A stretch of DNA of 64,000 nucleotides from contig OY969696.1 in assembly GCA_963702005.1 (NCBI GenBank), forward strand, positions 1,760,001 to 1,824,000, in the 5' to 3' direction. Below, in pieces: positions 28,376-47,006 of the stretch. Both the position numbers and the translations under genes were made by a program. Source of the DNA: Candidatus Aminicenantes bacterium (GTDB lineage: Bacteria; Acidobacteriota; Aminicenantia; Aminicenantales; JAFGBC01). The number at the start of each line of letters is the position of its first letter. Position 1 is the first letter of the stretch. Below the pieces are notes generated by a model that had not been told where the DNA came from, did no database searches, and worked only from the letters and a program-made list of their open reading frames with translations.

Positions 28376-29848
28376 ATGATGATTCGAAGCGGACACCGGC
28401 GCCTATTTAATGAGATCGTGCTTATCGGGCTTTCCCTCACGGTCCTAGTCTCCGCGCTCGCCCCGGCCCAAGAGCTCGTCTCCAACGTCGACGGCAAGAT
28501 CCAGGTCGTCATACTCCACTATGCGACGGTAGGGGAGGGCTTCTGGTTCGACCAGACCGTCCTCTTCCGCGACCTTCTCGCCAAAATGGATAAGGACGTC
28601 GGGTTCGTCATCCTGCTCGGGCCGGACGATAGCGCGGCTCGCGCCCGGGAGGTCCTTAGGCCGTTCGCCGCGGAGAAACTCCCCGACGGCACCGCCCGCG
28701 TCAAGTACCTTGTCGTCGACGTCAAGTCGAGCCTGTTCTATCCTTGGGCGCGCGACCCTTATTTCATCCTCAAGGACGGCGGGGATCGCCCGGTCTTCCT
28801 CGACGCCGGGTTCAACGAGAAGCCGTTCCCGGTCACCAAGTTTCAAGAAGTTTTTGCCGATGCCCTGACCTTGGCCGGGACGATCCATCGCGGAGGCGGC
28901 AACGTCCGGACGACCGAGGAAGCGATCTTCCTCGGCATGGATACGATCCTGGGGATCGCCACAAAACGACGCTACGCGCTCTTCGGTCAGGAGAGCTACG
29001 ACCATCTCTACGAGATGGCCGCGATCCTCAAGCCGAAAGATGTCCCCGCCTATCGCGAGAAATTAGACGCCCACGCCGAGTTCCTCCACCGAGTCCTCGC
29101 GCCCGGAAAGAGGCTCGTCATTCCCGAGAAGGACCTGTTCTTCGAGAAGTTGGGCAAGGGCGAGTTCGAATTCAAGACAAAGACGGTCCGTAACACGGGA
29201 GCCCAGGCCGCCTACCACACCGATGTCTACCTCGGTTTGGGCGATAAGGATGCCGCCGGCCGTCGGGTCCTGTTCGTCGCCGACAGCCGGGCCGGCGCGC
29301 AAATCGCCGAGGGCCTGGCCTCGGACAAGAGGCGGGAGGTGGAGCGAGGCCTGCCTCGGGTTCTCGTCGCCGAGGGGCTGACGGCGGCCGGCATCCCCGT
29401 GACCGAGGAACAGATCGCGGCCCGGTTTGAGTGGGACAAGCGCAAGCTCCTTGACCTCGGTATCGGAGAGGCGAAGAAGCAAGCCGAGAAGTTCGACAAG
29501 GCGGCTGCTTATCTCGAGGGGCTGGGCTTTAAGGTCGTCCGCATCCCGTGCCTTCCCAACGGCCTGAACGACGAGGACGAAAAGAACGACGGCGTCGTCG
29601 GCGTTTCCTTCAATTATTCCAACGTCCTGACCGAGGTCTACGGGGACGTCCGCAAGGTCTACCTGCCCCGGTTCGGGTTCGCGGCGATGGATAAGGCCGC
29701 GGCCGCCGCCTACCGATCGGCCGGTTTCGAGCCCGTCTTTATCGATGGACTTCTGACCAACGCCCTGAGCGTCCTTGAGGCCGGGCTGGATTGCCTGACC
29801 TCGGAGATCCGCTTCCCCGTCCGCTGGGCCGAGGCGACCTCCAAGTGA
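28376..29848 (+). CDS. secreted pentein-fold (agmatine/peptidylarginine deiminase-like) protein
   Basis: Signal peptide; ordered motifs WARD, GGN, HTD, NYSN and C-terminal GLDCLT. Confidence 0.55.
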   Translation: MMIRSGHRRLFNEIVLIGLSLTVLVSALAPAQELVSNVDGKIQVVILHYATVGEGFWFDQTVLFRDLLAKMDKDVGFVILLGPDDSAARAREVLRPFAAEKLPDGTARVKYLVVDVKSSLFYPWARDPYFILKDGGDRPVFLDAGFNEKPFPVTKFQEVFADALTLAGTIHRGGGNVRTTEEAIFLGMDTILGIATKRRYALFGQESYDHLYEMAAILKPKDVPAYREKLDAHAEFLHRVLAPGKRLVIPEKDLFFEKLGKGEFEFKTKTVRNTGAQAAYHTDVYLGLGDKDAAGRRVLFVADSRAGAQIAEGLASDKRREVERGLPRVLVAEGLTAAGIPVTEEQIAARFEWDKRKLLDLGIGEAKKQAEKFDKAAAYLEGLGFKVVRIPCLPNGLNDEDEKNDGVVGVSFNYSNVLTEVYGDVRKVYLPRFGFAAMDKAAAAAYRSAGFEPVFIDGLLTNALSVLEAGLDCLTSEIRFPVRWAEATSK

Positions 29849-29858
29849 CCCGGCCGGA

Positions 29859-29887
29859 TTGACACTCCAGGACGATTTTGGTATTTT
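29859..29887 (+). promoter_or_regulatory. sigma70 promoter of tRNA-Glu
   Basis: TTGACA-17 bp-TATTTT with an extended TG, 11 bp upstream of the tRNA. Confidence 0.6.
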
Positions 29888-29898
29888 GGGAACCTCTC

Positions 29899-29974
29899 GG
29901 CGCTATCGTCTAGAGGCCCAGGACAGGTGGTTCTCAGCCATCAGACCGGGGTTCGAATCCCCGTAGCGCTGCCA
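29899..29974 (+). tRNA. tRNA-Glu(CTC)
   Basis: GGCGCTA acceptor stem, anticodon arm GGTGG-TTCTCAG-CCATC, GTTCGAATC T-loop, encoded CCA. Confidence 0.95.
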
Positions 29975-30244
29975 GCCTTAAATCCCCGTATTCCCCTGAT
30001 TTTAAATTGTATTCATGTTTTTCTTGTTTAAGCACCATTAGCCTAGATTAAGCGAGTTAAATCACTTTTTGTTACACAGTTGTGACACGGGGAGAGGTTT
30101 GCAAGGATATCGGACTACCTAGGAATAAGCACCCATGTCCCCCAGGGGAGAGTTTTGGAGTTGGATAATCCCCCTGTTGACACCCCCGTGCGGCGGGGGT
30201 ATCCTGCCAGTGTGGGCAAGAGGGAGATCCAGAGGAGGATCCGC

Positions 30245-31837
30245 ATGGCATGGAGATTGCCGGCATTCATCATCATCGTGATCGCGGCTTTCGGCATACT
30301 GGCGAACATGACTGATGATACTCCGCTCGCCAGAGCGACCGAAACTTCTCCGGCAGGCCCATCGGCGACGGTTCATACCGGAACGGCATCCCAATTTCTT
30401 AGGACTATCATAGGAGTTGGCGTCAAAGGAAACCTGAAGCCCGGGAAAAAGCCGTATGCTGCGGGCACGCGCGTCGAGTTTAATTTCACCCCTGTAGCCG
30501 AGTACTCGGCGGCCATGGTTGTGCTGGACGGCAAGCTTGTCAGGTCGACAGGCACCATCATTATGAGCGCCGATCATTGGATATGGGCATTCGGCAATCC
30601 TGAGAAAGGAACTGCATTCAAGAATGTCATGACCGTGCCCTCCGACGCTACAAAAATCCCTTATCCCGACTTTTATCAGAAGCGGCCCTCATTCACCTTC
30701 AAGGTGGCGGATCCCTATTGCGCGTTGACCTCCAATGTCATTGCCTATCCCCGTTCCTATCTGGGAGCCTTTCCTATGCCTGATGTTATGGGAGCTCCTC
30801 TTCCTTCCAGCATCCCCCGCGGAGTCAGTCCCCACGATGTCTGGAGCCCCACTCTTAATAAAGGCTGTGATGACGATATGCATAGCGCCTTCCTGAGCAC
30901 TCTGCGACGCTGGAAGGAATTGAATGTCCACTATCTCATGATCCCCCAATGGACCCGTGTGGTCGATTGTAAAGCAGATTCATTGCAGCTCGCTACGGGC
31001 GCTGGCATGAATATTCCCGATGCCGAGCTGGCCTGGATCGTCAAGCAAGCTAAGAAGGCAGGATTCGAAGTGTACGAATTGATGCAGGTCGCTTCTCGTG
31101 ATATGAACCAAGTCCTCATGCCTAATCCACCCCCGTTGGACTTTGCTTCCCGTTTCCTCGACGCCTATAAGCGATTTATCGTCGGTCGGGCCGCCCTGGC
31201 GCAGCAGTTGGGGATCGCCGCCTTTCGACTCGACTGGGGGGACTATTGGTTCGACTGGACCCCCTACAAGGATCTCTTCCTGGAGAAAATGACGAAGGCG
31301 GCGAAGCTGGTCCGTAGTGTGTATCACGGGAAAATCATGTGCGGAAATCTTGCCCCCGATATTGAGGAGACGGACGATAATTTTAAGAGCCAATTCGATT
31401 GGTTGGAGCAAGTTTTTACCCTCGGTGGCATCACGGAAGCAGAGAATGCGAACATTACGGTCTCCTTGTTGAAAGAAAAGCTGCTGAATGATTTTACGGG
31501 TATAGCGTACAAGATGGGCTCCGTCAAAAAGCCGGTGTTAATGGGACTTTTTGTACAATCTTACCGCGATTTCCTGGTCAAAGGATGGGTGGAGGACACG
31601 GAGGACACCGGCGAGCAAAAAAAGCTTCAGATCGATTTTTCGGTTCAAGCTATCGCTTACGAGGCAGCGCTGGAGGCGATCGCAGAACAAACTCAATTGA
31701 CGGTGGTCGGCGTAGGAACCTATCATTATTGGTGGACCGACTGCATCCTCCCCAAAGACAGCTTTCCCAATCACTCGGCTTCCATTCGCAACAAACCGGC
31801 GGAGTCTATTCTCTATCAATGGTTCAGGAAACGATAG
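30245..31837 (+). CDS. secreted TIM-barrel glycoside hydrolase-like protein (GH113-like C-terminus)
   Basis: N-terminal hydrophobic helix; QAIAYEAALEAI, YHYWW and NKPAESILYQWF resemble GH113 ends; TTGACA-17-TATCCT promoter upstream. Confidence 0.55.
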   Translation: MAWRLPAFIIIVIAAFGILANMTDDTPLARATETSPAGPSATVHTGTASQFLRTIIGVGVKGNLKPGKKPYAAGTRVEFNFTPVAEYSAAMVVLDGKLVRSTGTIIMSADHWIWAFGNPEKGTAFKNVMTVPSDATKIPYPDFYQKRPSFTFKVADPYCALTSNVIAYPRSYLGAFPMPDVMGAPLPSSIPRGVSPHDVWSPTLNKGCDDDMHSAFLSTLRRWKELNVHYLMIPQWTRVVDCKADSLQLATGAGMNIPDAELAWIVKQAKKAGFEVYELMQVASRDMNQVLMPNPPPLDFASRFLDAYKRFIVGRAALAQQLGIAAFRLDWGDYWFDWTPYKDLFLEKMTKAAKLVRSVYHGKIMCGNLAPDIEETDDNFKSQFDWLEQVFTLGGITEAENANITVSLLKEKLLNDFTGIAYKMGSVKKPVLMGLFVQSYRDFLVKGWVEDTEDTGEQKKLQIDFSVQAIAYEAALEAIAEQTQLTVVGVGTYHYWWTDCILPKDSFPNHSASIRNKPAESILYQWFRKR

Positions 31838-32043
31838 GCCCGCCTTTATCAAGGCCGGAAAGATAAGCATTTCGTTTTCCGCATCCATCAGAAACAGTGG
31901 AGGGGTGCCACAGGAGGAATAAAATGTGTCTAAATTGTGACTGTTCCGTTCTCACAAGGTAAGATCTTATCAGTGTATGAATATAGTGGAGCCCCTAGAT
32001 TTCGGGAGATTGATTAATTTACGATTTTGCTATTAGCGATGCG

Positions 32044-32291
32044 AGGTGGTTCTCAGCCATCAGACCGGGGTTCGAATCCCCGTAGCGCTGCCAGCCTTAA
32101 AACTGCGCTTTCCCCTGATTTTCAATGGTATTTTTGTTTTCCTTGTTTAAGCACCCTTAGCCTAGATTAAGCGAGATTAGGCAGTTATTGTTACACCGGC
32201 GTGACACGGGGAGAGGTCTGTAAGCCATCAGACTAGCAGGGAATGAGCACCCAGACTCCCCCAACGGAGAGTTAGAAGTTGAATAATCCCC
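32044..32291 (+). repeat. att-like duplicate: 3' tRNA-Glu fragment plus ~190 bp of diverged downstream module
   Basis: 32044-32101 is identical (58 bp) to 29925-29982; similarity continues to ATAATCCCC (30173 / 32291). Confidence 0.92.
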
Positions 32292-32569
32292 TTAAATATC
32301 CATGATACTGAAACAAAGCATATCACGTCTAAAATAGTGAGGCGAAAATACGCGAAGAGCGTCAAGTTACCCAATGGGGCCATAGGCGCTGCCTGGCTTT
32401 ATTGCTATAGATAGGAAGAAAAAAGCTTCTTAGTTGGCTGTTTGATCGCCGTACCCATTAAGGCTCCATTCTCGCATGTTTTTCTAATTTACGTGGACCG
32501 ACTTATGGAAGGCAGATCACATCCCAGGCGCGGAACAGCCTGTAGTAACTCATTGAATCTAGACGATGC

Positions 32570-32609
32570 GCGCCCGTAGCTCAGTGGATAGAGCAATGGA
32601 CTTCGAATC
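32570..32609 (+). pseudogene. 5' half of tRNA-Arg(TCG)
   Basis: GCGCCCGTAGCTCAGTGGATAGAGCAATGGACTTCGAATC, followed by non-tRNA sequence. Confidence 0.85.
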
Positions 32610-32951
32610 TGATCCGGCCGGTTTCCCTAGCCTCCTCAAAACAAAGTAATCGTCAGTCTTATCTACGATTTATGAATTATTTCTAGGTATATGGAGGTAT
32701 ACCAAATTATCTGGAAATATACTGGGGATAGTCATAATTTGGTCACAGTCTTGACTGAGAGCCTTGTCGGCCGGAAATACCCGTACTCCCGCTCGAACCG
32801 GCTCTCGTTTTCGGCTCCGAAGCGGTCGAAATGATAGAACAGCATCGGTTTGCGGCAAAAAAATTGAAAATGTGAAACCCAAGTTTCTTGCTTTCCCGTT
32901 CATAATGGGATTATTCGGCGGCCAGCCGGGGCTTATCAACGCGGCCCGGAG

Positions 32952-33587
32952 CTATTTCACTTTGATGATGAAATTTACGGCCGCGTTCTTGGGCCGGGAT
33001 TCCTCACCTGCATTGACGCGCGATTTGGTGTTAAATTTGATGACTCCCAGAATGTTCGCTTTCCCTAAGCCGGTGTTGTCCGCGTTCGCGACGGGACTGC
33101 TGCTGGCCCAGTAAGGATCCTCGACGCTAATGGCCGGTCTTATTGTAGAGCTATGGAGATGGATAGAATGCGAATGAGGTTGCTGGTCATGCGTATGATT
33201 CTGCAACGCGTCTTCTTGCGCCGAGCCCACGCCCGTTGCGTTGCCGCCGGGATTGGATGGCTTGCGCTTGTTGGCGTCGGGATCCCGCCCCGTCCCGGCA
33301 TCGTCACCCCGGAGGAACCTTCCCCTCAGATCGGGCAGGTTGAATTTGTCTCCGGCGCTTCCCCACGAGGTCCCGATGGCCGCAAAGAGTTCTTTATAGA
33401 CCGCTTTGCTCAGCGCGCTGCCGTTGCACAACATCCAGTTCGTCGGAACGGTGCTTGATCCGCCTCCCCAGGCGATGATGGTCCCCACCGGAAGCGAATC
33501 GTCGGTCGCCCTTGTCGGAGCCATGATGCCCACGGTCCCCACAACCGACAATGTTGACAAAACGCCAGCCAATACTAAGTTCTTCAT
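32952..33587 (-). CDS. phage tail-collar domain protein with a signal peptide
   Basis: PVGTIIAW, WMLCNG, ELFAAIG, FNLPDLRGRFLRG, RPKNAAVNFIIK; AGGAGG RBS. Confidence 0.88.
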   Translation of the reverse strand: MKNLVLAGVLSTLSVVGTVGIMAPTRATDDSLPVGTIIAWGGGSSTVPTNWMLCNGSALSKAVYKELFAAIGTSWGSAGDKFNLPDLRGRFLRGDDAGTGRDPDANKRKPSNPGGNATGVGSAQEDALQNHTHDQQPHSHSIHLHSSTIRPAISVEDPYWASSSPVANADNTGLGKANILGVIKFNTKSRVNAGEESRPKNAAVNFIIKVK

Positions 33588-33863
33588 AACTATCCCTCCT
33601 TATAAATATTGGATAAGCCGGATGAGGATTCCCTTTTCGACGGCATCCGCCCCCAAACCGTAATTCAGGTCGATTTCCCATCTTGCTACTTGGAACAAAG
33701 ATAAATCCCTGTCCTGGATATGTCAAGGACGGTGGGATGATGGGTCGCGAGGGCTCGGCGGCCGCACTCATGGAAGCCATGAGTACCGCAAGGCCGCCGG
33801 GGGAGGCCGAAGAGCCGGGAATCCCATCATTTTCAATAAATTTAAGAATGGGGCGGATGAACA

Positions 33864-33917
33864 AGCATCGGACTGTGGATCCGAAGGTTGGGGGTTCGAG
33901 ACCCCTCACTCACCCCA
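33864..33917 (+). pseudogene. 3' fragment of tRNA-His(GTG)
   Basis: AGCATCGGACTGTGGATCCGAAGGTTGGGGGTTCGAGACCCCTCACTCACCCCA; the 5' acceptor strand and D-loop are missing. Confidence 0.88.
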
Positions 33918-34050
33918 CCTTATTTGCCAGTAAATTCAATCACTTGCCCTGTTTCTTCCTTTCCGCTCCAATACCGTAGTTTACCCGCTCTTCAACCGAA
34001 TCTGTGACATATTTGTGACATGGGGCGGAGTCTAGATTTCGATAGATCTG

Positions 34051-34064
34051 TGGACTTCGAATCC
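34051..34064 (+). repeat. tRNA-Arg(TCG) anticodon-arm fragment
   Basis: TGGACTTCGAATCC repeats 32597-32609. Confidence 0.6.
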
Positions 34065-34927
34065 GATTTAACCTGAAAGCCGTCTTGGCCTGTTTTTCCC
34101 TGAAAATAGCCTTAACTCATTGAATATCAGAGCGTTGACCCGTCTTAAATATTCTTAGGCAATTCCGTTTGAACACGTCACTAATCCCGTCAATATTTTC
34201 TGCACAAGTGTTGGTCACTTGCTGCTCCGTTTCATTTTTACAAACGGTAATATTTTTGAATCTGCATTGAATCACTACTTGAACGGGACGCGATGAATTC
34301 TCACCCGAGATTTCGGGCTGACCGGCTGTGTTCCTCATAAAAATCATGGCGGATTATTCCGATTATATGAATGAAATTGGGATGGTCGGCGCGAATAAAA
34401 CCGGGTCGGCCGGTCACAATTTAGCCACAGCGCCGCGGCCGGCATCGGGCTCGATGAGGACGGGATCGGAATGAACGAGTTTATCATCCCGCCCGAGAAG
34501 CGCGGCCTATGCGAGGAGGATCCTGATGTCCGCTGCGGAGTCGCCCGACCCTTCTGGGTCAGGATGGTTCTGCGGGCCTATAAGACCGTCGGCCCGCGCC
34601 TCCGGATTGTTTGCCGTATGCCAAAAGAGCTGGCGATGAGCTACCAGCCGATCACGGCACTCCGGGAGTGGAAGACGCTCGGGGTCTTCGACGATATCAC
34701 GAAGCAGGTCTGAGCGCGTTCAGGCGATTGACATCGCCTCGATGATGACGATACAATAAAAACTTAAGGAGTAGGGGAGATTCAGCGCCGCGAGCGGGCA
34801 TTCATTGCTTCACGAAAAAAACAACTTTTTCTATCTCAAGCCGACCAGCTGGGCGCAATTTAATGTGGCTCAGCCGGGGTCCCGGGGAATTGAATCACCC
34901 CAATTTTCTTCAAATAAGGAGGGGACG

Positions 34928-37708
34928 ATGAAGCCGTTGAGAATGATCCTCATGGGGAGCCTGATTGTCCTGCTCCTTTTCTCGGGGATTGCCTATGGAG
35001 CGGCTTGGGTGACCAAGAGGCTTACGACAACCTCGGGCGATTCGGGGAGCCCGAAGATCGCCGTCGACGGCTCGGCGGTCTATGTCGTCTGGACGGACGA
35101 TACGCCGGGAAATGGCGAAATCTACTTCCGGAAATCGTCCGATGGGGGAGTCGGCTGGCAAGCGGCGCAAAGACTCACCACCAATGTCGGTGACTCCGAG
35201 TCTCCGGCGATAGCCGTCGACGGCTTGAACGTCTATGTCGTCTGGGAGGATTCGACGCCGGGGATCGCCCAGATCTATTTCATGAAGTCCCAGGATGGAG
35301 GAAATCACTGGAAGGCCGCACGCGCCCTGACGGAAAATAAGACGGCGAAAGCGGGAAAGCCGGCCATCGCCGTCGTCGGCGCGAATATCTATGTGGCCTG
35401 GCAGAATGACGAGAGCGCCAAGGGAGGAAATTGCGGGGTCGCCTTGACGAAATCCGCCGACCGAGGAGCCGGTTGGCAGGCCGCTAAAACGCTCTCCGGG
35501 AATACGGGGTCTGCCGACGCCAAAAACCCGGCCGTCGCCGCCGCCGACTCGGGCGTCTATGTCGCCTGGGAAGAGAACACGGCCGGAAACAACGAGATCT
35601 ACTTCAGGAAATCGACGAGCGGAGGCGCCGCCTGGGAAGCTCCCAAGAGACTCACCACGAATTCGGGTTCCTCCAATTCTCCGGCCGTCGCCGCCATGGG
35701 CTCAACGGTCTATATCGCCTGGAGCGACGCCACGCCGGGGAATCCTGAGATCTATTTCCGGGAATCCGCCGATCAAGGAGCCACCTGGCAGCCCGGTTTG
35801 AGGCTCACCAATAATTCAGGCCGCTCCGAGGCTCCGGCCCTGGCCGTCAATGACTCAAGCCTCGATGTCGTCTGGAACGACGACACGCCGGGAAACATGG
35901 AGATCTACCATCGGCAGTCGACGAACGGGGGAGGCGCCTGGCGGGAAATCGAAAGGCTCACGAATAATTCCAGCACTTCCCGCGGCCAATTCCTGGGGGT
36001 CGGGGGCTCACAAATCTTCGTCGTCTGGCAGGATCTGACCCCGGGCAACAATGAAATTTACATCATGCATAAGAAGCCGGATATGAGTCCGATCTCCATA
36101 ATTTTACCGAACGCCTCCTCGGTCTGGGTCATGGGCACGACGGAGAAGATCAAATGGAAGATCCCCGAGGGCCTCGCCGGTCAAATCCATGTGGCGTCCT
36201 CGACGGATGTCCCGGCTATCGATAACGTGAAAATAGATTTGTATAAGGGGTCCACTCTGATCAAACCGATCGTCGCGGAAACAAACGCCGGCGCGGGGGC
36301 ATATTCATGGATGGTCCCGGCCGGCCTGGCGGACGGAACGGATTACATGGTTCGAATCTCGAACTCGACGGACGGCAAGGTCTATGAGGACAGCCCGCTG
36401 TTCGAAATCAGCGGCACGCCGCTCCCGGACCTGATCGTGTACAGCCTGACGCACAGCCCGGCAAACCCGACGATTTTGAATACGATCACGATAACCGCCG
36501 TTGTCAAGAATGTCGGCACGGCTCAGGCCGGCGCCTCGACCCTGCGTCTGAGTGTCGCCTCAGTTGATACGACCCCCACTATTCCCCTGCTTGCGGCGGG
36601 CGCCACAGCAACCGCAACTCGGACCGTGGGGCCTTTGGCGGTCGGAACCTATACGGTGACGGCGGGGGCGGACGACAGCCAGGTGGTTACGGAGTCGCGC
36701 GAAACGAATAATACCGCCGAGGATAGCTTCGTAGTGACCGGGCCGGACCTGATCGTGTATAGCCTGACGCACAGCCCGGCGAACCCAACGACTTTGGATC
36801 AGATCACGGTGACCGCTATCGTTAAGAATATCGGCACGGTTCAGGCTGGCAATTCAACTCTGCTTCTGAGCATCGGTGGCAGTGGTGGCTCGCCTAACTA
36901 TACTCCCGCGCTTGCGGCGGGCGCCAGCGCGACGGTAACCCGGACCGTGGGGCCTTTTTTACCGGTCGGGACCTATCCCGTAACGGCATGGGCTGATGGT
37001 ACCCATGTGATCGCGGAGTCGGACGAAACGAACAACTCCTTGGAGGACAGCTTCTTAGTGATCGTGCCGCCGGACTTAATTATTCAAAGCCTGACGCACA
37101 GCCCGGCGAACGCGACGATGGCGGATAAGAACACGGTCACCGCCGTGGTCAGGAATGCGGGAGGGTCAACCGCCGGCGCCTCGACTTTGCTATTAAGCGT
37201 GGGCGACCTGAAATCGAAAATGGACGTCTCTAAGCTCGCGGCTGGCACAACGTCGACCGTAAATTGGAACGTAGGGCAGTTGTGGACCGGCACGTACACG
37301 ATCTCAGCGACAGCGGACGTCGCTAACGTGGTTGCGGAGTCGGTCGAAAACAACAATACAAAAATTATCTCCGCCTGGATCGCGCCTGCTCCGGACTTGG
37401 CGCCGTCGCTGAGCTACTATATAATCAATGCCAATGGAACAAATTGGTTCATAATAAGTCGGGTGGTAAACAACTACGGGCCCGGGGACGCCCCCTCGTC
37501 ACGGCTCGAATGGTGGAACGAAGACCCTAAGGGAGGATCATATGGGGGAGGGGGGGAGACTATGAGATCGGTCCCGTGGCGGCAGGCAAGCTCTATTACT
37601 TTTATCAATATTTGCTTTTTGATCAAATGGCGCCCGGAACTTGGGTTTTCACCTTGCATTCGCACGGAGTGTCCGAATGGAAATATACTAACAATACGGC
37701 CACATTGA
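34928..37708 (+). CDS. secreted protein: BNR/Asp-box propeller, Kre9-like Ig domain, 3-4 CARDB domains
   Basis: Repeats VYV.W.D.TPGN.EIYFRKS.DGG..W; PDLIVYSLTHSP...ES.E.NN CARDB repeats conserved at the DNA level. The C-terminus looks degenerate. Confidence 0.85.
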   Translation: MKPLRMILMGSLIVLLLFSGIAYGAAWVTKRLTTTSGDSGSPKIAVDGSAVYVVWTDDTPGNGEIYFRKSSDGGVGWQAAQRLTTNVGDSESPAIAVDGLNVYVVWEDSTPGIAQIYFMKSQDGGNHWKAARALTENKTAKAGKPAIAVVGANIYVAWQNDESAKGGNCGVALTKSADRGAGWQAAKTLSGNTGSADAKNPAVAAADSGVYVAWEENTAGNNEIYFRKSTSGGAAWEAPKRLTTNSGSSNSPAVAAMGSTVYIAWSDATPGNPEIYFRESADQGATWQPGLRLTNNSGRSEAPALAVNDSSLDVVWNDDTPGNMEIYHRQSTNGGGAWREIERLTNNSSTSRGQFLGVGGSQIFVVWQDLTPGNNEIYIMHKKPDMSPISIILPNASSVWVMGTTEKIKWKIPEGLAGQIHVASSTDVPAIDNVKIDLYKGSTLIKPIVAETNAGAGAYSWMVPAGLADGTDYMVRISNSTDGKVYEDSPLFEISGTPLPDLIVYSLTHSPANPTILNTITITAVVKNVGTAQAGASTLRLSVASVDTTPTIPLLAAGATATATRTVGPLAVGTYTVTAGADDSQVVTESRETNNTAEDSFVVTGPDLIVYSLTHSPANPTTLDQITVTAIVKNIGTVQAGNSTLLLSIGGSGGSPNYTPALAAGASATVTRTVGPFLPVGTYPVTAWADGTHVIAESDETNNSLEDSFLVIVPPDLIIQSLTHSPANATMADKNTVTAVVRNAGGSTAGASTLLLSVGDLKSKMDVSKLAAGTTSTVNWNVGQLWTGTYTISATADVANVVAESVENNNTKIISAWIAPAPDLAPSLSYYIINANGTNWFIISRVVNNYGPGDAPSSRLEWWNEDPKGGSYGGGGETMRSVPWRQASSITFINICFLIKWRPELGFSPCIRTECPNGNILTIRPH

Positions 37709-37786
37709 CATATATCAAATGAGGATCGTCCTTCTACGGATAAAGAACAGATCTGCGCTTCGATAAAAAGTAGGAGTGGGGTCAAG

Positions 37787-37843
37787 CCTACACTTTGGCA
37801 CTAAGTGCAAATTGTCATTTTGTACGTTTTGCCAAGGTGTAGG
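37787..37843. repeat. inverted repeat between convergent genes
   Basis: CCTACACTTTGGCA ... TGCCAAGGTGTAGG (13/14 match). Confidence 0.5.
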
Positions 37844-37873
37844 GGCGAGCCGAACCTCAAAGCGCTTATCGAC

Positions 37874-39994
37874 TTAACGAGCGTCCTTAGGTTTCGCCGA
37901 TTTTGAGGGCGGTGAAACTTTCGCGACAATAGCATCAAAACCGCCGCGATTCGTTTTTTGAAAAGCATCTTTGGTCGGGAAATTGACGCTCTTAGTGCCC
38001 CCCGTCAGATAGGCTGCGCCGCCGCCGTCCAGAGCCACTTTCGTGCCGTAATCATCGGCCGTCCCGCCCAGATAAGTCGAATAGACAAGACCTTTTCCGG
38101 TCGGGGATAGGTTCGTTATGAATAGGTCATATTTTCCCCGATTCGTTTTCTGATAGGCGTCCTTGAGGGGGAAATTCTTGCTGCTGGTGCCGCCCGTCAC
38201 CCAGGCTGCTCCCGTGCCGTCGACGGCGATGCCGCCGCCAAAATCCTCGCCGGTCCCACCTAGAAAAGTGGAATATTCAAGAGTTTGACCGGTCGAGGAG
38301 AGCTTGGTGACAAAAGTATCGACATTGCCACGATTCGTTTTCTGAAAGGGAGTCTTGGTCGGGAAATCGGTGCTCCCGGTAGCGCCCGTCACGTAGGCCG
38401 CGCCGCTGTTATCGACGGCGATACTATAGGCAAAATCCATATCCTCCCCTCCCAGATAGGTTGAAAAGACAAGGCCTGTGCCGCTCGCGGAGAGCTTTGT
38501 GACAAATGCGTCAGCCCCCCCTTGCCCCGAGACGTTCTGATAAGCATTCTTGACGGGGAAATTCTTGCTGCTGGTGCTGCCTGTCACATAGGCCATCTTC
38601 TTAAGATCTACGGCGATTCCGAAGCCGACATCATTGTCGGCCCCGCCCAAAAAGGTGGAATAAACGAGCGCTTGGCCGGTCGGGGCGAGCTTCGTTACAA
38701 AGGCATCGAGTTTTCCGTGATTTTTTTTCTGGCAAGCTACCTGGGTGGGAAAATCGGTGCTCCAGGTTTCACCTGTGACATAGGCCGCTCCATCGCTGTC
38801 GACAGCTATGGAATTGGAGGTATCCGAATTGGCCCCGCCCAAATAGGTGGAATAGTCGATGGCCTGTCCGGACGGGGCGAGCTTCGTCACGAATCCATCG
38901 CCTCCGCCGCGATTCGAATTCTGAAAGGCATTCTTAACCGGAAAATTGGGGCTTAAGGTCGATCCCGTAACGTAGGCCGCCCCGTCGCCGTCTACGGCTA
39001 TGCCCTCGCCGTCCTCATTGTAGCGCCCGCCTAGGTAGGTGGAATAGACAAGGCTTTTGCCGCTCGGGGACAGCTTGGTGATGAAGATGTCATGCGTGCC
39101 GCCGTTCGTTTTCTGGCAGGCTGTCTTCATGGGAAAGTTCGTGCTGTCGGTTTCGCCCGTAACGTAAACCGCTCCAAGGCTATCCGCGGCGATCGCCCCG
39201 ACAATTTCGTAATAAGAACCGCCGAAGTAATCGTTCCCCGACCCGCCCAGGTAAGTGGAATAGACCAGGACGACGGGGTCGATGATTAAATCATAAGCGG
39301 GATTGAAATCCTTAACGCCGAATCCATATTCATCTTGTCCTATCCGTTTAAAAGCGGCTTCGACCTCAACACGTTTGCCCCCCATCGTCTGATAGCCTGT
39401 CGGCTTGCGATGCCTGAGCTCGCCAAATGTGCCCTCAACGATCAAATCTCCTTCTTTATCTATCCTCGTCGCTTTCAGGCCGCTGTATTTAAGGCGGAGG
39501 CTGTCAAGCTTTCCGCCGGGCTTAATGATCCAGTCATATTCAATCTGTCTTTCCAGGCCATAGACCTCGAGGTCGATATTCCTGTAGATATTTTTATACA
39601 AGACCGCGTTCGATGCCGGGATGCCTGTCCGCCATTGAGAGGGGTCGTTGCCGATAAAATAGCTCACCCGGCATTCCGTCGGCTGATAGGGCACAAGTTC
39701 GACATCTTTATTGGCGTTCAGGAAGACCAGGCTTGATATATCCCGCTCGAATTCCGCTTCTCTCTTTATGGCATCAAAAACCAGTCCCTCTTTCGTCATC
39801 CATAGCGTATACCCTGAAGCCTTGGCATAAAACAGCGCTTCGCTGTCTGCTTGTCCCTGGTTGGGTATAAAATAGAGCGGGATGTTCCCATAATCGGGTT
39901 CGGGTATCTTCCCGCTTTGCCTTATTTCACCCGCCATGGAAACAAGGAAAAGGCCAAACGTCAGCAACCCCAAGCCTACCATAAATCTTTTCAT
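37874..39994 (-). CDS. SBBP (seven-bladed beta-propeller) repeat protein
   Basis: FIPNQGQ and YFIGNDPSQW N-terminal domain; repeated YSTYLGG...GIAVD..GAAYVTG.T.S.NFP. Confidence 0.92.
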   Translation of the reverse strand: MKRFMVGLGLLTFGLFLVSMAGEIRQSGKIPEPDYGNIPLYFIPNQGQADSEALFYAKASGYTLWMTKEGLVFDAIKREAEFERDISSLVFLNANKDVELVPYQPTECRVSYFIGNDPSQWRTGIPASNAVLYKNIYRNIDLEVYGLERQIEYDWIIKPGGKLDSLRLKYSGLKATRIDKEGDLIVEGTFGELRHRKPTGYQTMGGKRVEVEAAFKRIGQDEYGFGVKDFNPAYDLIIDPVVLVYSTYLGGSGNDYFGGSYYEIVGAIAADSLGAVYVTGETDSTNFPMKTACQKTNGGTHDIFITKLSPSGKSLVYSTYLGGRYNEDGEGIAVDGDGAAYVTGSTLSPNFPVKNAFQNSNRGGGDGFVTKLAPSGQAIDYSTYLGGANSDTSNSIAVDSDGAAYVTGETWSTDFPTQVACQKKNHGKLDAFVTKLAPTGQALVYSTFLGGADNDVGFGIAVDLKKMAYVTGSTSSKNFPVKNAYQNVSGQGGADAFVTKLSASGTGLVFSTYLGGEDMDFAYSIAVDNSGAAYVTGATGSTDFPTKTPFQKTNRGNVDTFVTKLSSTGQTLEYSTFLGGTGEDFGGGIAVDGTGAAWVTGGTSSKNFPLKDAYQKTNRGKYDLFITNLSPTGKGLVYSTYLGGTADDYGTKVALDGGGAAYLTGGTKSVNFPTKDAFQKTNRGGFDAIVAKVSPPSKSAKPKDAR

Positions 39995-40320
39995 CGATCT
40001 TTCCTCTCCTCAGAAAGTTTAGCGTTTTTGTTGTTGGAAAACCTCGATTTATTTATAAATATTCGCTCCGCTCAATAATGTCAAGGAATTATTGGCTGTC
40101 GATCGATCAAGGGCCTTTCCTGATCCGGCGGAACCCACTAGACTGGCCGGGATGACAAACGGCGTCCTAAAATCCCCACGCCTAATCTGCCGCTCCACGG
40201 GGGCGCCCTTCTGCGTCATCAATCTGTTACCGATAGCACGCGGGAAAAAGTGTGCCTACTCAATCGTTTGATTTTCTGCCTCAACCTCTGCTATAAGTTA
40301 AAGCGCTGGCCGGGGATGAG

Positions 40321-42102
40321 ATGAAACCAGCCAAGAGGGTTTCAACCGCTTCGAGCAAAGATGCTCCCGGTTCTTTTTTAGGAAAACTAAGAAAGCGGAA
40401 GATCATTGAAACCTTGGCCGCTTTTATCGGCGGCGGTTGGCTGACATACGAAATCGTCCATTGGATTCTGGTGGTTCACTTTCATCTTCCGGAAAAGCTT
40501 CTGGACATTACTCTCATCACGCTGTTGGGCGCTCTCCTTTGCACTCTGGTCTGGCGCTGGTTTGGGGGGAGAGACAAGCCGGCCAAATTCAAGCCGGAAG
40601 TGATCCTTGTTCCTCTGGCCATCTTGGTTACGGTCATTCTGGATTTGAATCTTGTCCTCCACCTTAAAAGCCCCGAATCAGAGACATTTCCCGCCAGCAA
40701 ATGGACCAAGTCGATCGCCGTCCTTCCTTTCATCGACATGAGCGAACAGAAAGATCAAGACTACTTCTGCGACGGCATGACAGAGGAACTCATCAACCGA
40801 CTGAGCCATATCGAGGAACTTAAAGTCCCGGCCAGAACCTCGGCCTTTATGTTCAAAGGAAAAGCCGAGGATATCCGCGATATCGGCCGCAAGCTCGATG
40901 TCCGGACGGCGCTTGAGGGAAGTATCAGAAAAGCGGGGAACCGGCTTCGAGTCACGGCTCAACTCGTTAATATTGCCGACGGCTATCATCTCTGGTCGGA
41001 GACTTACGACCGTGAACTGAAAGATGTGTTCGCTGTTCAGGATGAGATTTCTTTAGCGATCGTAAACGCCTTGAAGCTGAAACTTGACACTGATGAAGGC
41101 CGCAGAATGTCTGAACGGCCCATTGACAATGTTGCGGCCTATGAATGCTACCTGAAAGCAAACGCTGAAATGGGGCGGCAATCCGAGGACGGCTTAGATC
41201 GCGCCGTACAATATCTTCAGAAAGGCCTTGAGATCGCCGGTGACAATGCCCTTCTCTATTCAGAACTGGCACGGGCCTATCGTTACTATGTCGACTTAGG
41301 TTTCAGACAAGAGGAGTACATTAAAAGTGCCGAAGGATACGCTAATAAGGCATTAGCGCTGGATCCTGATTTCCCTGAAGCTCATGTTGTTATCGGGACT
41401 ATTCAAAGCTGGTTTCATGGAAATCAGCAAGAGGCAGTTCGTCAATTCAAGAGGGCATTGGCCTTGAACCCGAATGAACCGGGGGCGCTGCGGCAGCTTG
41501 CGCTTATTTATATATTGGTCGGACAAATCCCTGCCGCCCTTCCGTTGTTAGATAGATATAATAAAGTCGATCCGCTGCCGCTGAGCAGCCACTATTCGAT
41601 CCGAATCCATTTATACTTCTGGGATGGTCGCTATGGACTTGCCCTTGAGCCGTCCCGCCAGTGGTACCAATCGGAACCCCTAAGTCCAAGGGCTCAGGCT
41701 GCCTATGCATGGACGCTGGCCCTCAATAATAAGCTTGATGAGGCCTTTCAGATCATCGATCAAAATGCGAAGCTGGCTCCAAACAGTGTACTGACCAAGC
41801 TTGGTCTTTTGTTGAAGTATGGGTTGCTCAAAGAAAACGAGAAAGCATTCCAGGTAATGACTCCGGATTTCGTGAGGACGTGCAAAAGGGATCCATCTTG
41901 GTCACATATTGTTGTGCTCGCCCTAGCCCTGCTCGACGCTAAGAAGGAAGCCATAGACTGGCTTGAGAACTCTGTCAATCAAGGGTTTTTAAATTACCCG
42001 GCGCTGGAGCGGAATCCGTGTTTTGAAAACTTACGCGGCGAGGTGCGGTTCAAGAATCTAATGGAACGGGTCAAGAAAGAATGGGAGCATTTTAAGGTGT
42101 GA
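40321..42102 (+). CDS. membrane-anchored TolB-like/TPR protein, paralog 1
   Basis: 3 TM helices; SIAVLPF, FCDGMTEELI, EGSIRKAGNRLRV, GYHLWSE; TPRs. Confidence 0.88.
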   Translation: MKPAKRVSTASSKDAPGSFLGKLRKRKIIETLAAFIGGGWLTYEIVHWILVVHFHLPEKLLDITLITLLGALLCTLVWRWFGGRDKPAKFKPEVILVPLAILVTVILDLNLVLHLKSPESETFPASKWTKSIAVLPFIDMSEQKDQDYFCDGMTEELINRLSHIEELKVPARTSAFMFKGKAEDIRDIGRKLDVRTALEGSIRKAGNRLRVTAQLVNIADGYHLWSETYDRELKDVFAVQDEISLAIVNALKLKLDTDEGRRMSERPIDNVAAYECYLKANAEMGRQSEDGLDRAVQYLQKGLEIAGDNALLYSELARAYRYYVDLGFRQEEYIKSAEGYANKALALDPDFPEAHVVIGTIQSWFHGNQQEAVRQFKRALALNPNEPGALRQLALIYILVGQIPAALPLLDRYNKVDPLPLSSHYSIRIHLYFWDGRYGLALEPSRQWYQSEPLSPRAQAAYAWTLALNNKLDEAFQIIDQNAKLAPNSVLTKLGLLLKYGLLKENEKAFQVMTPDFVRTCKRDPSWSHIVVLALALLDAKKEAIDWLENSVNQGFLNYPALERNPCFENLRGEVRFKNLMERVKKEWEHFKV

Positions 42103-42109
42103 GGGCGGC

Positions 42110-43828
42110 ATGAACAGCGGTTTCAGGTCCTTCTTCTCAAATTTAAGGAAGAAGAGAATCATCGAAATCCTGGCCGCGTTCATCGCTGGCGGATGGCTCA
42201 TTATAGAGTTTGTCCACTTCATTTTGATAGGTCACTATCACTTTCCCGATAAAACTCTGGATGTAACGTTTATCACGCTTATCGGTGTCCTCCTGTGCAC
42301 GCTCATCTGGCGGTGGTTTTCAGGCCGCCGGAAGCCGAGAAAACTCAAGCTGGAGCTCATCCTTATCCCTCTGGTGCTCCTGATCATGGTTTTGTTGGAT
42401 ATCAATCTCCTTCTCCACTTGAAGGAACCCGAATCAGCGGCCATCCCCGCCCCCCAATGGAAGAACTCGATCGCCGTGCTTCCTTTCGTTGACACGAGCC
42501 CCCAGAAGGACCAGGACTGGTTCTGCGACGGCATCACCGATGAAATCATCACCCGGCTGAGCAATATCAGCGAGCTCAAGGTCGCGGCCAGGACCTCGGC
42601 CTTTTTCTTCAAAGGCAAAGAACAGGATATTCGAGAAATCGGGAAGAAGCTGGGCGTGACCACGGTGCTTGAGGGCAGTATTCAGAAGGTCGAATCGAGG
42701 CTTCGCGCCAGAGTGCAGCTGATCAACATTGCGGATGGCTTCCATCTCTGGTCGGAAGAATATGATCGTGAGCTGAAAGACATTTTTGCCATTCAGGATG
42801 ACATCGCCCAGAAGATCATGGACGTTCTTAAAATAAGGCTTCTGGGGGAAATGCGAACGCGACTGGTGAAACACTATACGGAAAACCGCGAGGTCTACAG
42901 CCTTTATCTAAAAGGGCGCTACTTTTGGAACAAAAGAGAAAAGGACGACAATTTAAGATCCATTGAATACTTCCAGGGCGCGATCGACAGAGATCCATCT
43001 TACGCGCTTGGCTATTCAGGCATGAGCTTGGCTTATGTTACGCTTGGATCCAATGATCATGTCCGTCCAAAAGAGGTTTTTCCAAAGGCAAAAGTGGCGG
43101 CCCTAAAAGCTTTGGCGATTGACCAAGAGTTGGATGAGGCTCATGTCGCCCTGGGTGGAGAATTGATGTGGTACGAGCGAGATTTTTCCAGAGCCGAGAA
43201 GGAATTCACAAGGGCCATTGATTTAAACCCTAACAATGGGGATGCTCATCACTGGTATGCATGGCTATTAATGAATATAGGCCGGAGTGAAGAAGCCATA
43301 AAGGAAGCGTTATTGGCTCGGGATCTGGATCCGTTTGCGCCTCGAATAAACGCTGATACGGCGTTCATGTTCTATTATACACGAGACTATCCCCGGGCGG
43401 TTGAAGAGCTTGAAAGGTCGATAGAGATGTTTCCTGAACATCTGGGTAATTATTTCAGGATAGCTCGGGTCTATTTAAAGATGGCCAAATATAAAGACGC
43501 CATCGAATCAATTATACGTTTTGCTGAGCAGCCAAATTTCGCTCCTACACTTGCTTATGCTTATGCTTTATCAGGAGAAAAAGATAAGGCCCAGGAGATT
43601 TTGAACAAAATATTAGAAAATCTCGGTCAACAATGGTATTCGCATGTCCAAATAGCCGAAGTTTATACGGCCCTGGGAGATAAAGAGCAGGCCTTTTCTT
43701 GGCTGGAAAGAGCTTTTGCTGAAAGCGATATGGCCTTACCCTATTTAAAGATAAAACCTGAGTTCGATCCCCTTCGCTCAGACCCGCGCTTCACCGAACT
43801 TCTTAGGAGAGCCGGCCTTGAAAAATAA
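42110..43828 (+). CDS. membrane-anchored TolB-like/TPR protein, paralog 2
   Basis: Same N-terminal architecture; YLKGRYFWNKR; ends FDPLRSDPRFTELLRR. Confidence 0.88.
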   Translation: MNSGFRSFFSNLRKKRIIEILAAFIAGGWLIIEFVHFILIGHYHFPDKTLDVTFITLIGVLLCTLIWRWFSGRRKPRKLKLELILIPLVLLIMVLLDINLLLHLKEPESAAIPAPQWKNSIAVLPFVDTSPQKDQDWFCDGITDEIITRLSNISELKVAARTSAFFFKGKEQDIREIGKKLGVTTVLEGSIQKVESRLRARVQLINIADGFHLWSEEYDRELKDIFAIQDDIAQKIMDVLKIRLLGEMRTRLVKHYTENREVYSLYLKGRYFWNKREKDDNLRSIEYFQGAIDRDPSYALGYSGMSLAYVTLGSNDHVRPKEVFPKAKVAALKALAIDQELDEAHVALGGELMWYERDFSRAEKEFTRAIDLNPNNGDAHHWYAWLLMNIGRSEEAIKEALLARDLDPFAPRINADTAFMFYYTRDYPRAVEELERSIEMFPEHLGNYFRIARVYLKMAKYKDAIESIIRFAEQPNFAPTLAYAYALSGEKDKAQEILNKILENLGQQWYSHVQIAEVYTALGDKEQAFSWLERAFAESDMALPYLKIKPEFDPLRSDPRFTELLRRAGLEK

Positions 43829-43831
43829 CCC

Positions 43832-43850
43832 GTGGTTCTCGGCCATCAGA
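43832..43850 (+). repeat. tRNA-Glu anticodon-arm fragment (third att-like copy)
   Basis: GTGGTTCTCgGCCATCAGA (18/19 match to the tRNA), followed by TGTTACGCATTTGTGAC. Confidence 0.75.
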
Positions 43851-43866
43851 TTTTGTTACGCATTTG

Positions 43867-43977
43867 TGACCCGTTCGCCGACGCCAAGCCCCGCCTTTCA
43901 AGGCGGGGATGAGAGCGAGGCTCAGGGTTAATCATAAACAAGCCCCGGCCTTCAGGCCGGGGAGTCGATGATTTGAC
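43867..43977. mobile_element. non-autonomous IS200/IS605-type palindromic mini-element, copy 1
   Basis: Hairpins CCCCGCCTTTCAAGGCGGGG and CCCCGGCCTTCAGGCCGGGG; bounded by TGAC; near-identical to 63261-63402. Confidence 0.8.
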
Positions 43978-44055
43978 ACGGGGATGGGTTTATGCAAAAA
44001 ATATCGAAAGCCATATATATTGATTAATGAAAATAAAAAGTGAGATAAAAAGGGC

Positions 44056-44796
44056 ATGAGAAATGAAAACCAACCCGATCCTGCTATTTTAAAGAAAAAA
44101 CTGGATATCAAGCTTCCGCTCATCGGATTTTATGATGCGCCCGATCCGGCCATATTCGAACCCCTCGTCACGCCCAAGAAAAACGACTGCGTCTTCTCAT
44201 TCTACAAGAACTGGCTTCAAGGCGAGACTCTCTCCAGCACCAGGGAGAGTTACGGCTGCGGCGGCGCCGGCAGTTGCTTATGGGGAATCCAGGCCAGGTC
44301 GAGAAAGGAGTTCATCAAGTTCCTTGCCGATGATGAAGGTCTCAAGGTCTCGGGCGAGCTTATGGAGAGATTCATCGATTCGACAACGTCCTACCGAGCC
44401 GAGAACGCCCACATTTTCATCGGGCCGCTCAAGGAGGAAGGCTGGCCATACGTCAAGACAATCACTTTTCTTGTCAACCCTGATCAGCTAAGCGCTTTGA
44501 TGATCGGCGCGCAGTATCACAGCGCCCCCGAGGACCCGCCTCCAGTATTAGCGCCCTTTGGCTCAGGCTGTCGCGAGCTCATCCCTTTCAAGGACTTCAA
44601 TGGGCCTCAGGCTTCGATCGGCGCGACTGACATCGCCATGCGTCAACACTTACCACCTGACATCCTCGCATTTACCGTCACCAAGCCGATGCTCAGCCGG
44701 CTCTGTAAACTCGACGAAAGAAGCTTCCTCTACAAGCCTTTTCTGCTACGTCTCCAGAAAGCTCGCGGCGCCACGCTCTTTCGCGATCCAACGTAA
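44056..44796 (+). CDS. DUF169-domain protein
   Basis: YGCGGAG, FLVNPDQLSAL, APFGSGC, IGATDIAMR. Confidence 0.8.
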   Translation: MRNENQPDPAILKKKLDIKLPLIGFYDAPDPAIFEPLVTPKKNDCVFSFYKNWLQGETLSSTRESYGCGGAGSCLWGIQARSRKEFIKFLADDEGLKVSGELMERFIDSTTSYRAENAHIFIGPLKEEGWPYVKTITFLVNPDQLSALMIGAQYHSAPEDPPPVLAPFGSGCRELIPFKDFNGPQASIGATDIAMRQHLPPDILAFTVTKPMLSRLCKLDERSFLYKPFLLRLQKARGATLFRDPT

Positions 44797-45012
44797 GGCT
44801 CGCCTCCCGCTGTTTTTAGCTCGAGTTGACTTCCTCTGTTCTTATAATCTATTATCCATGACGATGAGACGTAGCAAAATCAGCGCCTAAATTATCACTT
44901 AGCCAGCGCAGAGGAAAAGGAATTTTCTCTAAATCGGATCAGTAAGAACCAGGCGATTCAGCGCCGGTTTCCCCTCAAGGAGGGGGGAGGGCGCGGTCCG
45001 AAAGGAGGGACC

Positions 45013-45798: not shown

Positions 45799-46025
45799 AA
45801 GGGCGGGCGTCTGACCTCCCGTCGGGGGTCGTTCCGATTATTGCGAGACAGGACACTAGAAAGATTCTAGATGGTGCCCCGGCCGATCCTCCTAAAATGC
45901 GATGGCTTTTTGGCGAAAACCCTGATATACATACCCTCGGTAATTATCCGCCGGCAGGGAAGAGAAAGCTCTGCATAATCTTTGAGTTGCCGGAGAAAGA
46001 CGACTGAATCGGAGAGGAGGAAGAA

Positions 46026-46967: not shown

Positions 46968-47006
46968 TTGACATTCAATTAAGATTCCTTACAATATAGG
47001 TAAGGA
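46968..47006 (+). promoter_or_regulatory. toxin-antitoxin promoter with operator palindrome
   Basis: TTGACA (46968), TACAAT (46990); TCCTTAC-N7-GTAAGGA overlaps the -10 box. Confidence 0.7.

Follow-up and report, generated by a model that had tools for sequence, protein, structure and literature searches.

How can pieces of three different tRNA genes come to lie in a row behind one intact tRNA gene, interspersed with protein genes and with no integrase among them? The question is raised by a stretch of 64,000 nucleotides, hereafter called the window, from the genome of a Candidatus Aminicenantes bacterium (assembly GCA_963702005.1, contig OY969696.1, positions 1,760,001 to 1,824,000), which consists of a single 4.31-Mb contig with 60% GC and 52 tRNA genes. 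From the letters of the DNA, the region between 29899 and 44000 had been described as an integrase-less array of gene cassettes working in the manner of an integron (hereafter the sequence-only reading). As analysed here, the stretch from 29925 to about 47830 is probably a genomic island produced by serial and nested site-specific insertion, where the incoming elements belong to one family with a tRNA-targeting tyrosine integrase (P4-like) and where the remaining units, devoid of integrase, comprise units resembling cis-mobilizable elements (CIMEs) as well as true mini-elements. That the tRNA pieces are attachment site (att) scars of one such element family is supported by sequence comparison. 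Positions refer to the window unless given as genome positions.

tRNA pieces, arms and two single-gene units

When all 52 tRNA genes were compared with the whole genome to locate tRNA fragments, the pieces listed in the sequence-only reading proved real by ARAGORN, Rfam and BLAST, namely (i) the intact tRNA-Glu(CTC) at 29899-29974 (ARAGORN; Rfam 52.9 bits), which anchors the array and is the only true tRNA of the window by both programs, its part 29925-29974 being the first direct-repeat copy of the Glu core, (ii) a Glu 3' copy at 32044-32093 (tRNA positions 27-76; 50/50, E 3e-22), (iii) an Arg(TCG) 5' half at 32570-32614, of which 32570-32609 corresponds to positions 1-40 of the genome tRNA-Arg(TCG) (39/40, E 6e-14), (iv) a His 3' half at 33864-33917 (positions 24-77; 54/54, E 1e-24 against the genome tRNA-His), (v) an Arg anticodon-arm remnant at 34051-34064, and (vi) a truncated Glu anticodon-arm remnant at 43832-43850. 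The two short remnants, scored by BLAST across seven regions of ~95 kb in total, are weak alone (14/14, E 0.02, and 18/19, E 0.004, respectively); the Arg remnant is backed by its surroundings, as 34041-34221 is 84% homologous to the DNA that follows another Arg 5' half, and the Glu remnant is directly followed by an arm-type repeat pair. The comparison also bore out that every piece is on the + strand and includes the anticodon arm. Integration-derived fragments of tRNA genes are described as being miscalled as tRNA genes (PMC9897764), and ARAGORN does likewise here at 32026-32093, which was rejected as a true tRNA with an Rfam score of 23.1 bits against a cut-off of 29. Because the fragments end at tRNA positions 24-36 and 41, recombination would take place in the anticodon loop.

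Attachment sites of the lambda/P4 type are heterobivalent, i.e., they combine core-type and arm-type sites with sites for Xis and IHF. In the window, a conserved arm lies after every 3' fragment, and its order is a T-rich spacer, four TTARGC-like repeats ~10-11 nt apart, a pair TGTKACAY-N3-5-(T)GTKACAY and then GGGGAGAGGTCTG, after which the similarity ends sharply; from the Glu core onwards, 29925-30173 and 32044-32291 share 84% identity over 250 nt. Arm module 1 (29975-30173, + strand) forms the left end of a first unit, E1, and exhibits the spacer, four repeats at 30027-30069 and a pair at 30070-30090, which reads TGTTACAC-AGT-TGTGACAC and is followed by GGGGAGAGGTTTG. Arm module 2 (32094-32291, + strand) has its pair at 32189-32209, and arm module 3 (33918-34025, + strand), of a His type, has it at 34003-34023 and is 95% identical to a copy in G001, the one usable genome of the same genus, and 93% to one in genome G023. 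The pair occurs seven times in the genome and three times in the window, against none in 100 shuffles, and related arm copies lie in the genome behind tRNA-Arg(TCG), tRNA-Asp, another Glu fragment and a His fragment.

The resemblance to lambda/P4 sites concerns the inverted repeat of the core (here the anticodon stem), the paired arm repeats on both sides (pairs at 30070, 31925, 32189, 32731, the latter inverted, and 34003, around cores that are anticodon stem-loops) and the row of phased repeats; full elements here likewise carry xis-like and int genes beside the att region. Unlike in lambda/P4, a single arm seems to be shared by two cores, being flanked by a tRNA 3' half at one end and by an Arg- or Leu-like anticodon arm at the other. 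By analogy, the TGTKACAY pairs may be arm-type sites for the integrase N-domain, and the TTARGC repeats may be sites for an excisionase or bending protein. As a candidate RNA gene, the arm was rejected, no Rfam family being found at gathering cut-off or at E <= 10, and phased short direct repeats in such a position suit protein-binding DNA better.

Among 151 genomes of the order, sampled from nine families, the arm was found in 32 genomes and 7 families. In the sampled loci it stands immediately 3' of a Glu, Asp, Ala, Thr, Gln, Leu or Phe tRNA, and also of His and Arg(TCG), a tRNA being called by ARAGORN in 16 of the 29 arm loci. Arms are mostly orphan: in tblastn searches, which used the 12 integrases of this genome only, an integrase occurs within 1.5 kb in 1/29 arm loci, and in 11 arm-holding loci of up to 20 kb one integrase-like piece was detected (94 aa, in G017). 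Behind the arm pair, at a distance of 5-110 nt, a tRNA-like piece is present in 5/29 cases versus 3/106 control windows.

E1 spans 29925-32043 (2119 bp) and is composed of the Glu core, arm module 1, one gene and a pair on the P side, with the second Glu core as its right boundary; this core is at the same time the left boundary of the next unit, E2. The pair on the P side, TGTGTCTAAATTGTGACT at 31925-31942 (+ strand), is located 100 nt before the Glu 3' copy, and at genome 3151474 the same motif precedes an Ala 3' fragment by 6 nt. E1 thereby keeps both attL and attR, i.e., exact 50-nt cores, the arm module at left and the arm-type pair at right. Its cargo is a 530-aa protein encoded at 30245-31837 (+ strand, the open reading frame (ORF) opening with TTG at 30155) with an N-terminal hydrophobic anchor. 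This protein had been called similar to glycoside hydrolases (GH), for which a lead exists, since its best language-model neighbours are GH53/GH113 (0.85-0.89) and it is possibly a TIM barrel resembling GH clan A; with no Pfam match, the designation is to be taken as a lead only. In a search of 246 genomes of the order, the protein is present in one, its own, with two marginal partial matches besides, and no relative was found in a search of genome contigs for related loci. Contigs of four metagenome runs labelled as wetland (X1 to X4) were also consulted: contig depth over the interior of E1 is ~0-1 in X1 and X4 and 5-8 in X2 and X3, which was not used as it cannot show presence or absence, and a pattern scan of metagenome contigs for the promoter and 5' end of the tRNA-Glu gave 0 matches.

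Inside E2, a second small unit has as its sole gene a tail-collar domain protein of 211 aa (32952-33587, - strand; PF07484, E 5.5e-19) with an N-terminus resembling a signal peptide. At the left junction, the target side is the Arg 5' half at 32570-32614 (+ strand; 43/45 to an Arg 5' half at genome 3081709), and the element side is a type I arm at 32623-32752 (+ strand; 98/126 to the stretch behind an Arg-like core at the tRNA-His locus of G023), which holds an inverted arm-type pair, GTCATAATTTGGTCACAG, at 32731-32748 and is 91-92% identical to genome 3146224-3146403 and 3150139-3150318. At the right junction, the His-type arm at 33944-34024 (+ strand) matches 78/81 the stretch preceding the Arg-like core in G023, and from arm to core, 33999-34059 (+ strand) matches 60/61 an unrecombined copy at genome 2219811. 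The target side there, made of an Arg core (~34041-34064) and a type II arm (34041-34221 as a whole, + strand), matches 160/181 genome 3081502-3081692, behind the Arg 5' half at 3081709. The 60/61 match narrows the crossover to GGACTTCG, in the Arg anticodon loop, and together with the fragment ends this agrees with the earlier attribution of the fragments to tyrosine integrases recombining in anticodon loops.

In this four-way comparison, both junctions fall in the same 8-nt segment of the anticodon loop and are reciprocal; therefore, the DNA between them is a circularly permuted element of ~1.45 kb, comprising the type I arm, the tail-collar gene, the His 3' half and the His-type arm. The unit keeps both recombinant junctions, i.e., attL and attR. 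At locus L069 of G023, the His-type arm pair, one Arg-like core and the type I arm lie contiguous in this order, which is the junction that a circle of the unit would have. In G001 and G023, the same His-type arm follows the intact tRNA-His, which would mean integration via the His core in these genomes. The comparison shows here a unit that would have entered as a circle via its Arg-like core, with the His 3' half as an unused second core, and such a dual-core att region would explain why several tRNA identities are mixed in one array. In one contig of run X4, a similar arm is linked to a Glu 3' half (34002 > 29924) across 33 intervening letters, which is another arrangement of an arm followed by a core, from some related organism.

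Seven paralogs of the tail-collar protein occur in two other tRNA-fragment arrays. They stand in tandem (genome 2580510-2584805 and 2736384-2737862), all of them shortly upstream of a Leu(CAA) or Arg(ACG) tRNA or fragment and pointing away from it. The possibility that the Arg 5' half carries with it the upstream side of the tRNA-Arg locus was tried and rejected, the 100 nt upstream aligning no better than shuffles (86/500 reached the score). A short repeat of ~36 nt at 33762-33797 is scattered over the genome in 10-15 copies.

Cargo, extent of the island and sister arrays

Past the tail-collar unit, E2 continues as a block of four genes in mixed orientation (34805-43828), namely a CARDB/BNR protein (34805-37708, + strand), a DUF7948/SBBP protein (37874-39994, - strand) and two TPR proteins (40321-42102 and 42110-43828, both + strand). 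Pfam agrees with the earlier naming of these genes as well as of the tail-collar gene. The idea that they constitute separate cassettes did not hold: no tRNA fragment was found between the CARDB, SBBP and TPR genes (34.8-43.8 kb), and the block of ~9 kb is undivided. Two tandem paralogs of the CARDB/BNR gene, at 86-88% DNA identity, lie beside a tRNA-Met gene at genome 4123538-4129382, where no att fragment was detected, and a short repeat of ~70 nt at 37773-37843 has 10-15 copies scattered over the genome.

The Glu remnant at 43832-43850 begins 4 nt past the second TPR gene and is probably the old right boundary of E2. It is followed by a remnant arm-type pair, TTGTTACGCATTTGTGAC...ACGGGGATGG (43855-43996, + strand), which, judging from the sequence and its genome copies, is split by a miniature inverted-repeat transposable element (MITE) of ~111-126 nt; contigs of all four runs join 43870 to 43997 without the MITE and read TTTGTGAC-ACGGGGATGG. 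Decay hence grows with distance from the tRNA, the proximal Glu copy being 50/50 and the distal one 18/19, truncated and with a MITE in its arm, as expected if newcomers enter at the intact gene. The MITE, which resembles repetitive extragenic palindromic (REP) sequences (43867-43996; ~111 nt with two GC-rich hairpins), has ~100 copies in the genome, a further one in the window being at 63312-63403.

The sequence-only reading had ended the array at ~44000. The region of low GC extends further, to ~47830: GC is mostly 0.46-0.56 from 30000 to ~47500, with a few 500-nt bins reaching 0.62, whereas the flanks have 0.60-0.67, and core genes resume with dus at 47830, its flank being 89% identical to G001. 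From the tRNA to ~47830, the low-GC stretch thus holds at least two or three stacked units. The distal part (44056-47829), assigned from Pfam and GC, encodes a DUF169 protein, a small CARDB protein and a Lys-rich ORF of 145 aa, and is possibly a third unit. This Lys/Glu-rich ORF (46026-46463) has no Pfam or Rfam match, and 45883-46455 shows 82-94% DNA identity across four families of the order, which is better conservation than that of the flanking core genes (85-89% to G001), and has another genomic context in G001.

Related genomes had been expected to differ cassette by cassette at the tRNA-Glu locus. In G001, the operon upstream and the tRNA-Glu are the same, but the arm is missing and other DNA follows, i.e., this genome is without the whole block, and homology to other loci and genomes does break at tRNA-derived cores; no cassette-wise difference was seen.

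Elsewhere in the genome, tRNA fragments are numerous, with 22 loci at E <= 1e-8 clustered in tandem or mixed arrays. At least seven such arrays exist (Val, His, Lys/Asp/Arg, Arg(ACG), Leu(CAA), Arg(TCG) and 3.14-3.15 Mb), with (i) four Val 3' copies at 167-177 kb behind an integrase-bearing island, (ii) His, Gln and Arg pieces at 2.21-2.22 Mb, (iii) Lys, Asp and Arg pieces at 2.37 Mb, (iv) two Arg(ACG) copies at 2.74 Mb, (v) a Leu(CAA) 5' piece at 2.58 Mb, and (vi) Arg(TCG) 5' halves at 3.08 Mb and 3.146-3.154 Mb, the latter with Glu and Ala pieces. As arrays of several tRNA identities recur in the genome, the mixing is systematic. The other arrays have the same layout with other repeat sequences, one repeat type being found at both ends of a unit: TGTGCCCAAA at Val, GTGGCACAAA and AGCGGAAAG at Arg(ACG), and CGTCCCTGGAA at Leu(TAA). 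Matching end pairs are present in the Val array, the Arg(ACG) island with int2734, a two-gene tail-collar mini-element and a 52-kb element. The latter carries xis, int3091 and a CGTCCCTGGAA pair at each end, and sits in a site resembling a Leu(TAA) anticodon right behind a TGTKACAY arm, a site that is unoccupied in genome G082 (locus L046); the tRNA-Leu called by ARAGORN at genome 3143121 is its attL.

At no fewer than six places, the genome has neat units of 1.4-2.1 kb that contain one or two genes between matching arm pairs, i.e., E1, the single-gene tail-collar unit, its two-gene counterpart at Arg(ACG), and units at Leu(CAA), Lys and Arg(TCG), and similar small units recur in other families of the order. 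Integrase remnants are met in sister arrays, as a piece of 89 aa at genome 2221825-2222094 and the 94-aa piece in G017.

Two further loci deserve description. Over 74 kb (genome 3079782-3153688), the intact tRNA-Arg(TCG) is preceded by four Arg(TCG) 5' halves with three integrase genes between them, which looks like a rare tandem array of elements duplicating the 5' part of the tRNA. In another genome of the order (L057, G057:C2:168000-187999), a 15-kb integrase-less island extends from tRNA-Asp and its arm to a 26-nt Asp 3' copy, with a complete type I restriction-modification system and a WG-repeat trypsin-like protease as cargo.

Integrases and rival explanations

The absence of an integrase from the window, noted before, was confirmed: the 12 PF00589 matches of the genome are all located outside it; tblastn at E < 5 found no integrase pseudogene in 29800-48000, save one match that is arm DNA; and the window holds no large serine recombinase, the two of the genome lying ~220-250 kb outside. 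By these same searches and Pfam, the units are devoid of integration and transfer genes. At a related locus, L070 of genome G112, the order is a GTGAC-type pair, an Arg(TCG) 3' fragment, an arm, a xis-like ORF and an integrase of 361 aa, whose gene has GGTCACAATTTGGTCACAG within its 3' end, and then tRNA-Arg(CCG), a single-gene unit of 1 kb and an Arg(CCG) 3' copy. Homologues of this integrase, at 33-47% identity, are present in 53/151 genomes; of 20 loci, 16 have a tRNA or a tRNA fragment no more than 200 nt behind the integrase match, and 12 have direct pairs of 7-12 nt near the integrase. The order of a full element is thus tRNA, arm, cargo, xis, int, pair and tRNA fragment.

On these grounds, the island probably formed as follows. 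Recombination in the anticodon loop would act on modular att regions, each made of a tRNA-derived core, a spacer, four TTARGC repeats and a TGTKACAY pair, with a similar pair across the core, and many elements would carry behind the arm a second core resembling a tRNA anticodon, serving both as alternative integration site and as entry point for the next element. E1 would have entered at tRNA-Glu, ahead of E2, and the 1.45-kb tail-collar element would have entered an Arg-type site inside E2 via its Arg-like core, leaving the His core unused. The integrase would have been supplied in trans or lost afterwards; since the genome has no integrase gene that can be recognised as cognate, movement of the units would probably depend on the arrival of a helper element. 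More tentatively, and as a possibility that we would not put in the foreground, the att regions may be multi-core docking modules, where each unit brings, behind its arm, a fresh core for a next one of another tRNA specificity, so that an integrase-less array would lengthen by itself at a tRNA gene, and where the units of 1.4-2.1 kb are genuine mobile elements, non-autonomous and moved as circles by the integrases of full-size relatives.

Several points weigh against insertion by one integrase family. The circular or excised forms that the sequence-only reading had envisaged were not seen, be it the joint 29974>32094 or any other excision or circle of E1, or a circle or excision joint of the tail-collar unit, among the 15 joints listed, out of 35, for the contigs of the four runs, bearing in mind that contigs drop rare forms. 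No close relative was found in which the corresponding site could be seen with or without E1 or the tail-collar unit, and the mobility of the mini-units is therefore unsupported by strain comparison. Beside or inside the 11 examined integrase genes of the genome (the 89-aa remnant excluded), there is no GTGAC-type pair; the integrase of L070, the one found with such a pair, has its best relatives in this genome at 35-37% identity. Of the earlier proposal that cassettes accumulate by integrases acting in trans, what stands, as an inference, comes from the integrase-less units and the reciprocal tail-collar junctions; with none of the 11 having matching arm-type sites, present-day mobilisation in trans is unsupported. 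The tail-collar unit could also have brought an integrase of its own and lost it later. How the Arg 5' half and the type II arm arrived in a Glu island is left unexplained, the enrichment of tRNA-like pieces behind the arm pair is modest, with one test match being the query itself, and protein binding to the arm repeats is predicted from their spacing and position.

The loss of integrases leads to a more radical view, in which the units were once integrase-bearing islands or prophages and deletions removed the integrase, the excisionase and most of the cargo, without any mobility of cassettes. Such pure decay, which in our judgement is rather unlikely, finds backing in the integrase remnants of the sister arrays (89 aa here, 94 aa in G017), in the degraded distal Glu core and arm, in the lack of a recognisable cognate integrase in the genome and in the origin of CIMEs as given in reviews (PMC5704250). 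It would require several independent and equally neat deletions, however, since tail-collar genes stand in three different att frameworks without integrase; and the 1.4-2.1-kb units with matching arm pairs recur in the genome and in other families. Apart from arm DNA, 29800-48000 holds no integrase remnant by tblastn. Insertion by an integrase family remains the reading adopted here, and it must also be compared with exchange by homologous recombination between arms at different tRNA loci, where translocations or inversions would have mixed the order of the pieces. Arms are indeed 75-88% identical over 80-250 nt at seven loci, and the His 3' half and arm, which occur behind tRNA-His in G001 and G023, are located in a Glu island here. 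Nonetheless, the tail-collar junctions are reciprocal and both in one 8-nt segment of the anticodon loop, and those of the 52-kb element are in a Leu-like anticodon arm and not in arm repeats, which makes this exchange very improbable. Homing of the Tn7 type or by CRISPR-associated transposons (CAST-like) was set aside, because the fragment ends and direct repeats fit tyrosine-integrase crossovers.

An integron possesses the integrase gene intI, the site attI and cassettes with attC sites, which are folded hairpins. In the integron-like platform put forward in the sequence-only reading, the tRNA-Glu and its arm would be a fixed capture site, at which one trans-acting integrase shuffles single-gene cassettes. 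The locus does share with integrons integrase-less and often single-gene units with complete att sites, sites or cores in one orientation and a fixed anchor, and orphan arms are usual in the order (an integrase in 1/29 loci; one 94-aa piece among 11). The likeness stops there: no intI or attI-like site is present, no integrase lies at or near the site and none of those examined in the genome matches; the boundaries are heterogeneous tRNA cores, and each unit has its own lambda-like arm of 150-400 nt instead of sharing one; genes are on both strands, without the logic of a common promoter, and the 9-kb block is undivided; equivalent arrays exist at many tRNAs, i.e., they are not specific to this locus; and no joint reflecting loss or reordering was seen among the 15 of 35 listed. 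The platform is thus improbable, and the claim was abandoned.

Relation to known systems and meaning

The array is filed as a modular, multi-core variant of tandem accretion and CIMEs, not as a new kind of system. CIMEs are described as lacking integration and transfer genes while keeping attL and attR (PMC5704250), and like the CIMEs and accreted islands of the ICESt1/ICESt3 type in that description, the units here keep attL and attR without integration or transfer genes. They differ from CIMEs as portrayed in the same source in three ways: (i) single-gene units may measure only 1.45-2.1 kb, and no integrative and conjugative element (ICE) or integrative and mobilizable element (IME) is adjacent, (ii) the att regions have second cores that stem from other tRNAs, which lets newcomers with a different specificity insert within residents, and (iii) across an order of uncultured bacteria, the family has about nine or more tRNA species as its targets. 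An origin of the units from ICEs is left unclaimed, and no full-length relative of E1 or of the tail-collar unit was found in searches of the genome contigs and the genomes of the order.

With the islands collected by Islander, where 3760 have 3' fragments and 159 have 5' fragments (PMC4383910), the present island shares an intact tDNA with a displaced direct fragment, the cognate Glu fragment being in the same orientation as the intact tDNA and on its downstream side, as well as a crossover centred on the anticodon and the commonness of 3' pieces. It has no internal tyrosine integrase, which Islander requires, and it contains tRNA fragments of non-cognate identity, which the Islander model as outlined there does not place inside an island. 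According to the same description, candidates without integrase or shorter than 2 kb are dropped, and tandems are resolved only if each member has an integrase (PMC4383910). As such, island finders that require an integrase and a minimum size leave units of this kind uncounted.

The interest of the locus lies in the docking rule and in the single-gene mini-elements. If second cores do allow both choice of target and docking, there would be a simple rule for the piling up of unrelated tRNA fragments at one locus, and the four TTARGC repeats, the TGTKACAY pair and the integrases of the family make up a concrete, testable system. Uncultured bacteria of wetlands and sediments would then have a route for trading single genes of surface or secreted proteins without a recombinase of their own, and, should multi-core docking be true, the order would possess a distributed, order-wide counterpart of the integron, gathering mainly secreted and surface proteins.

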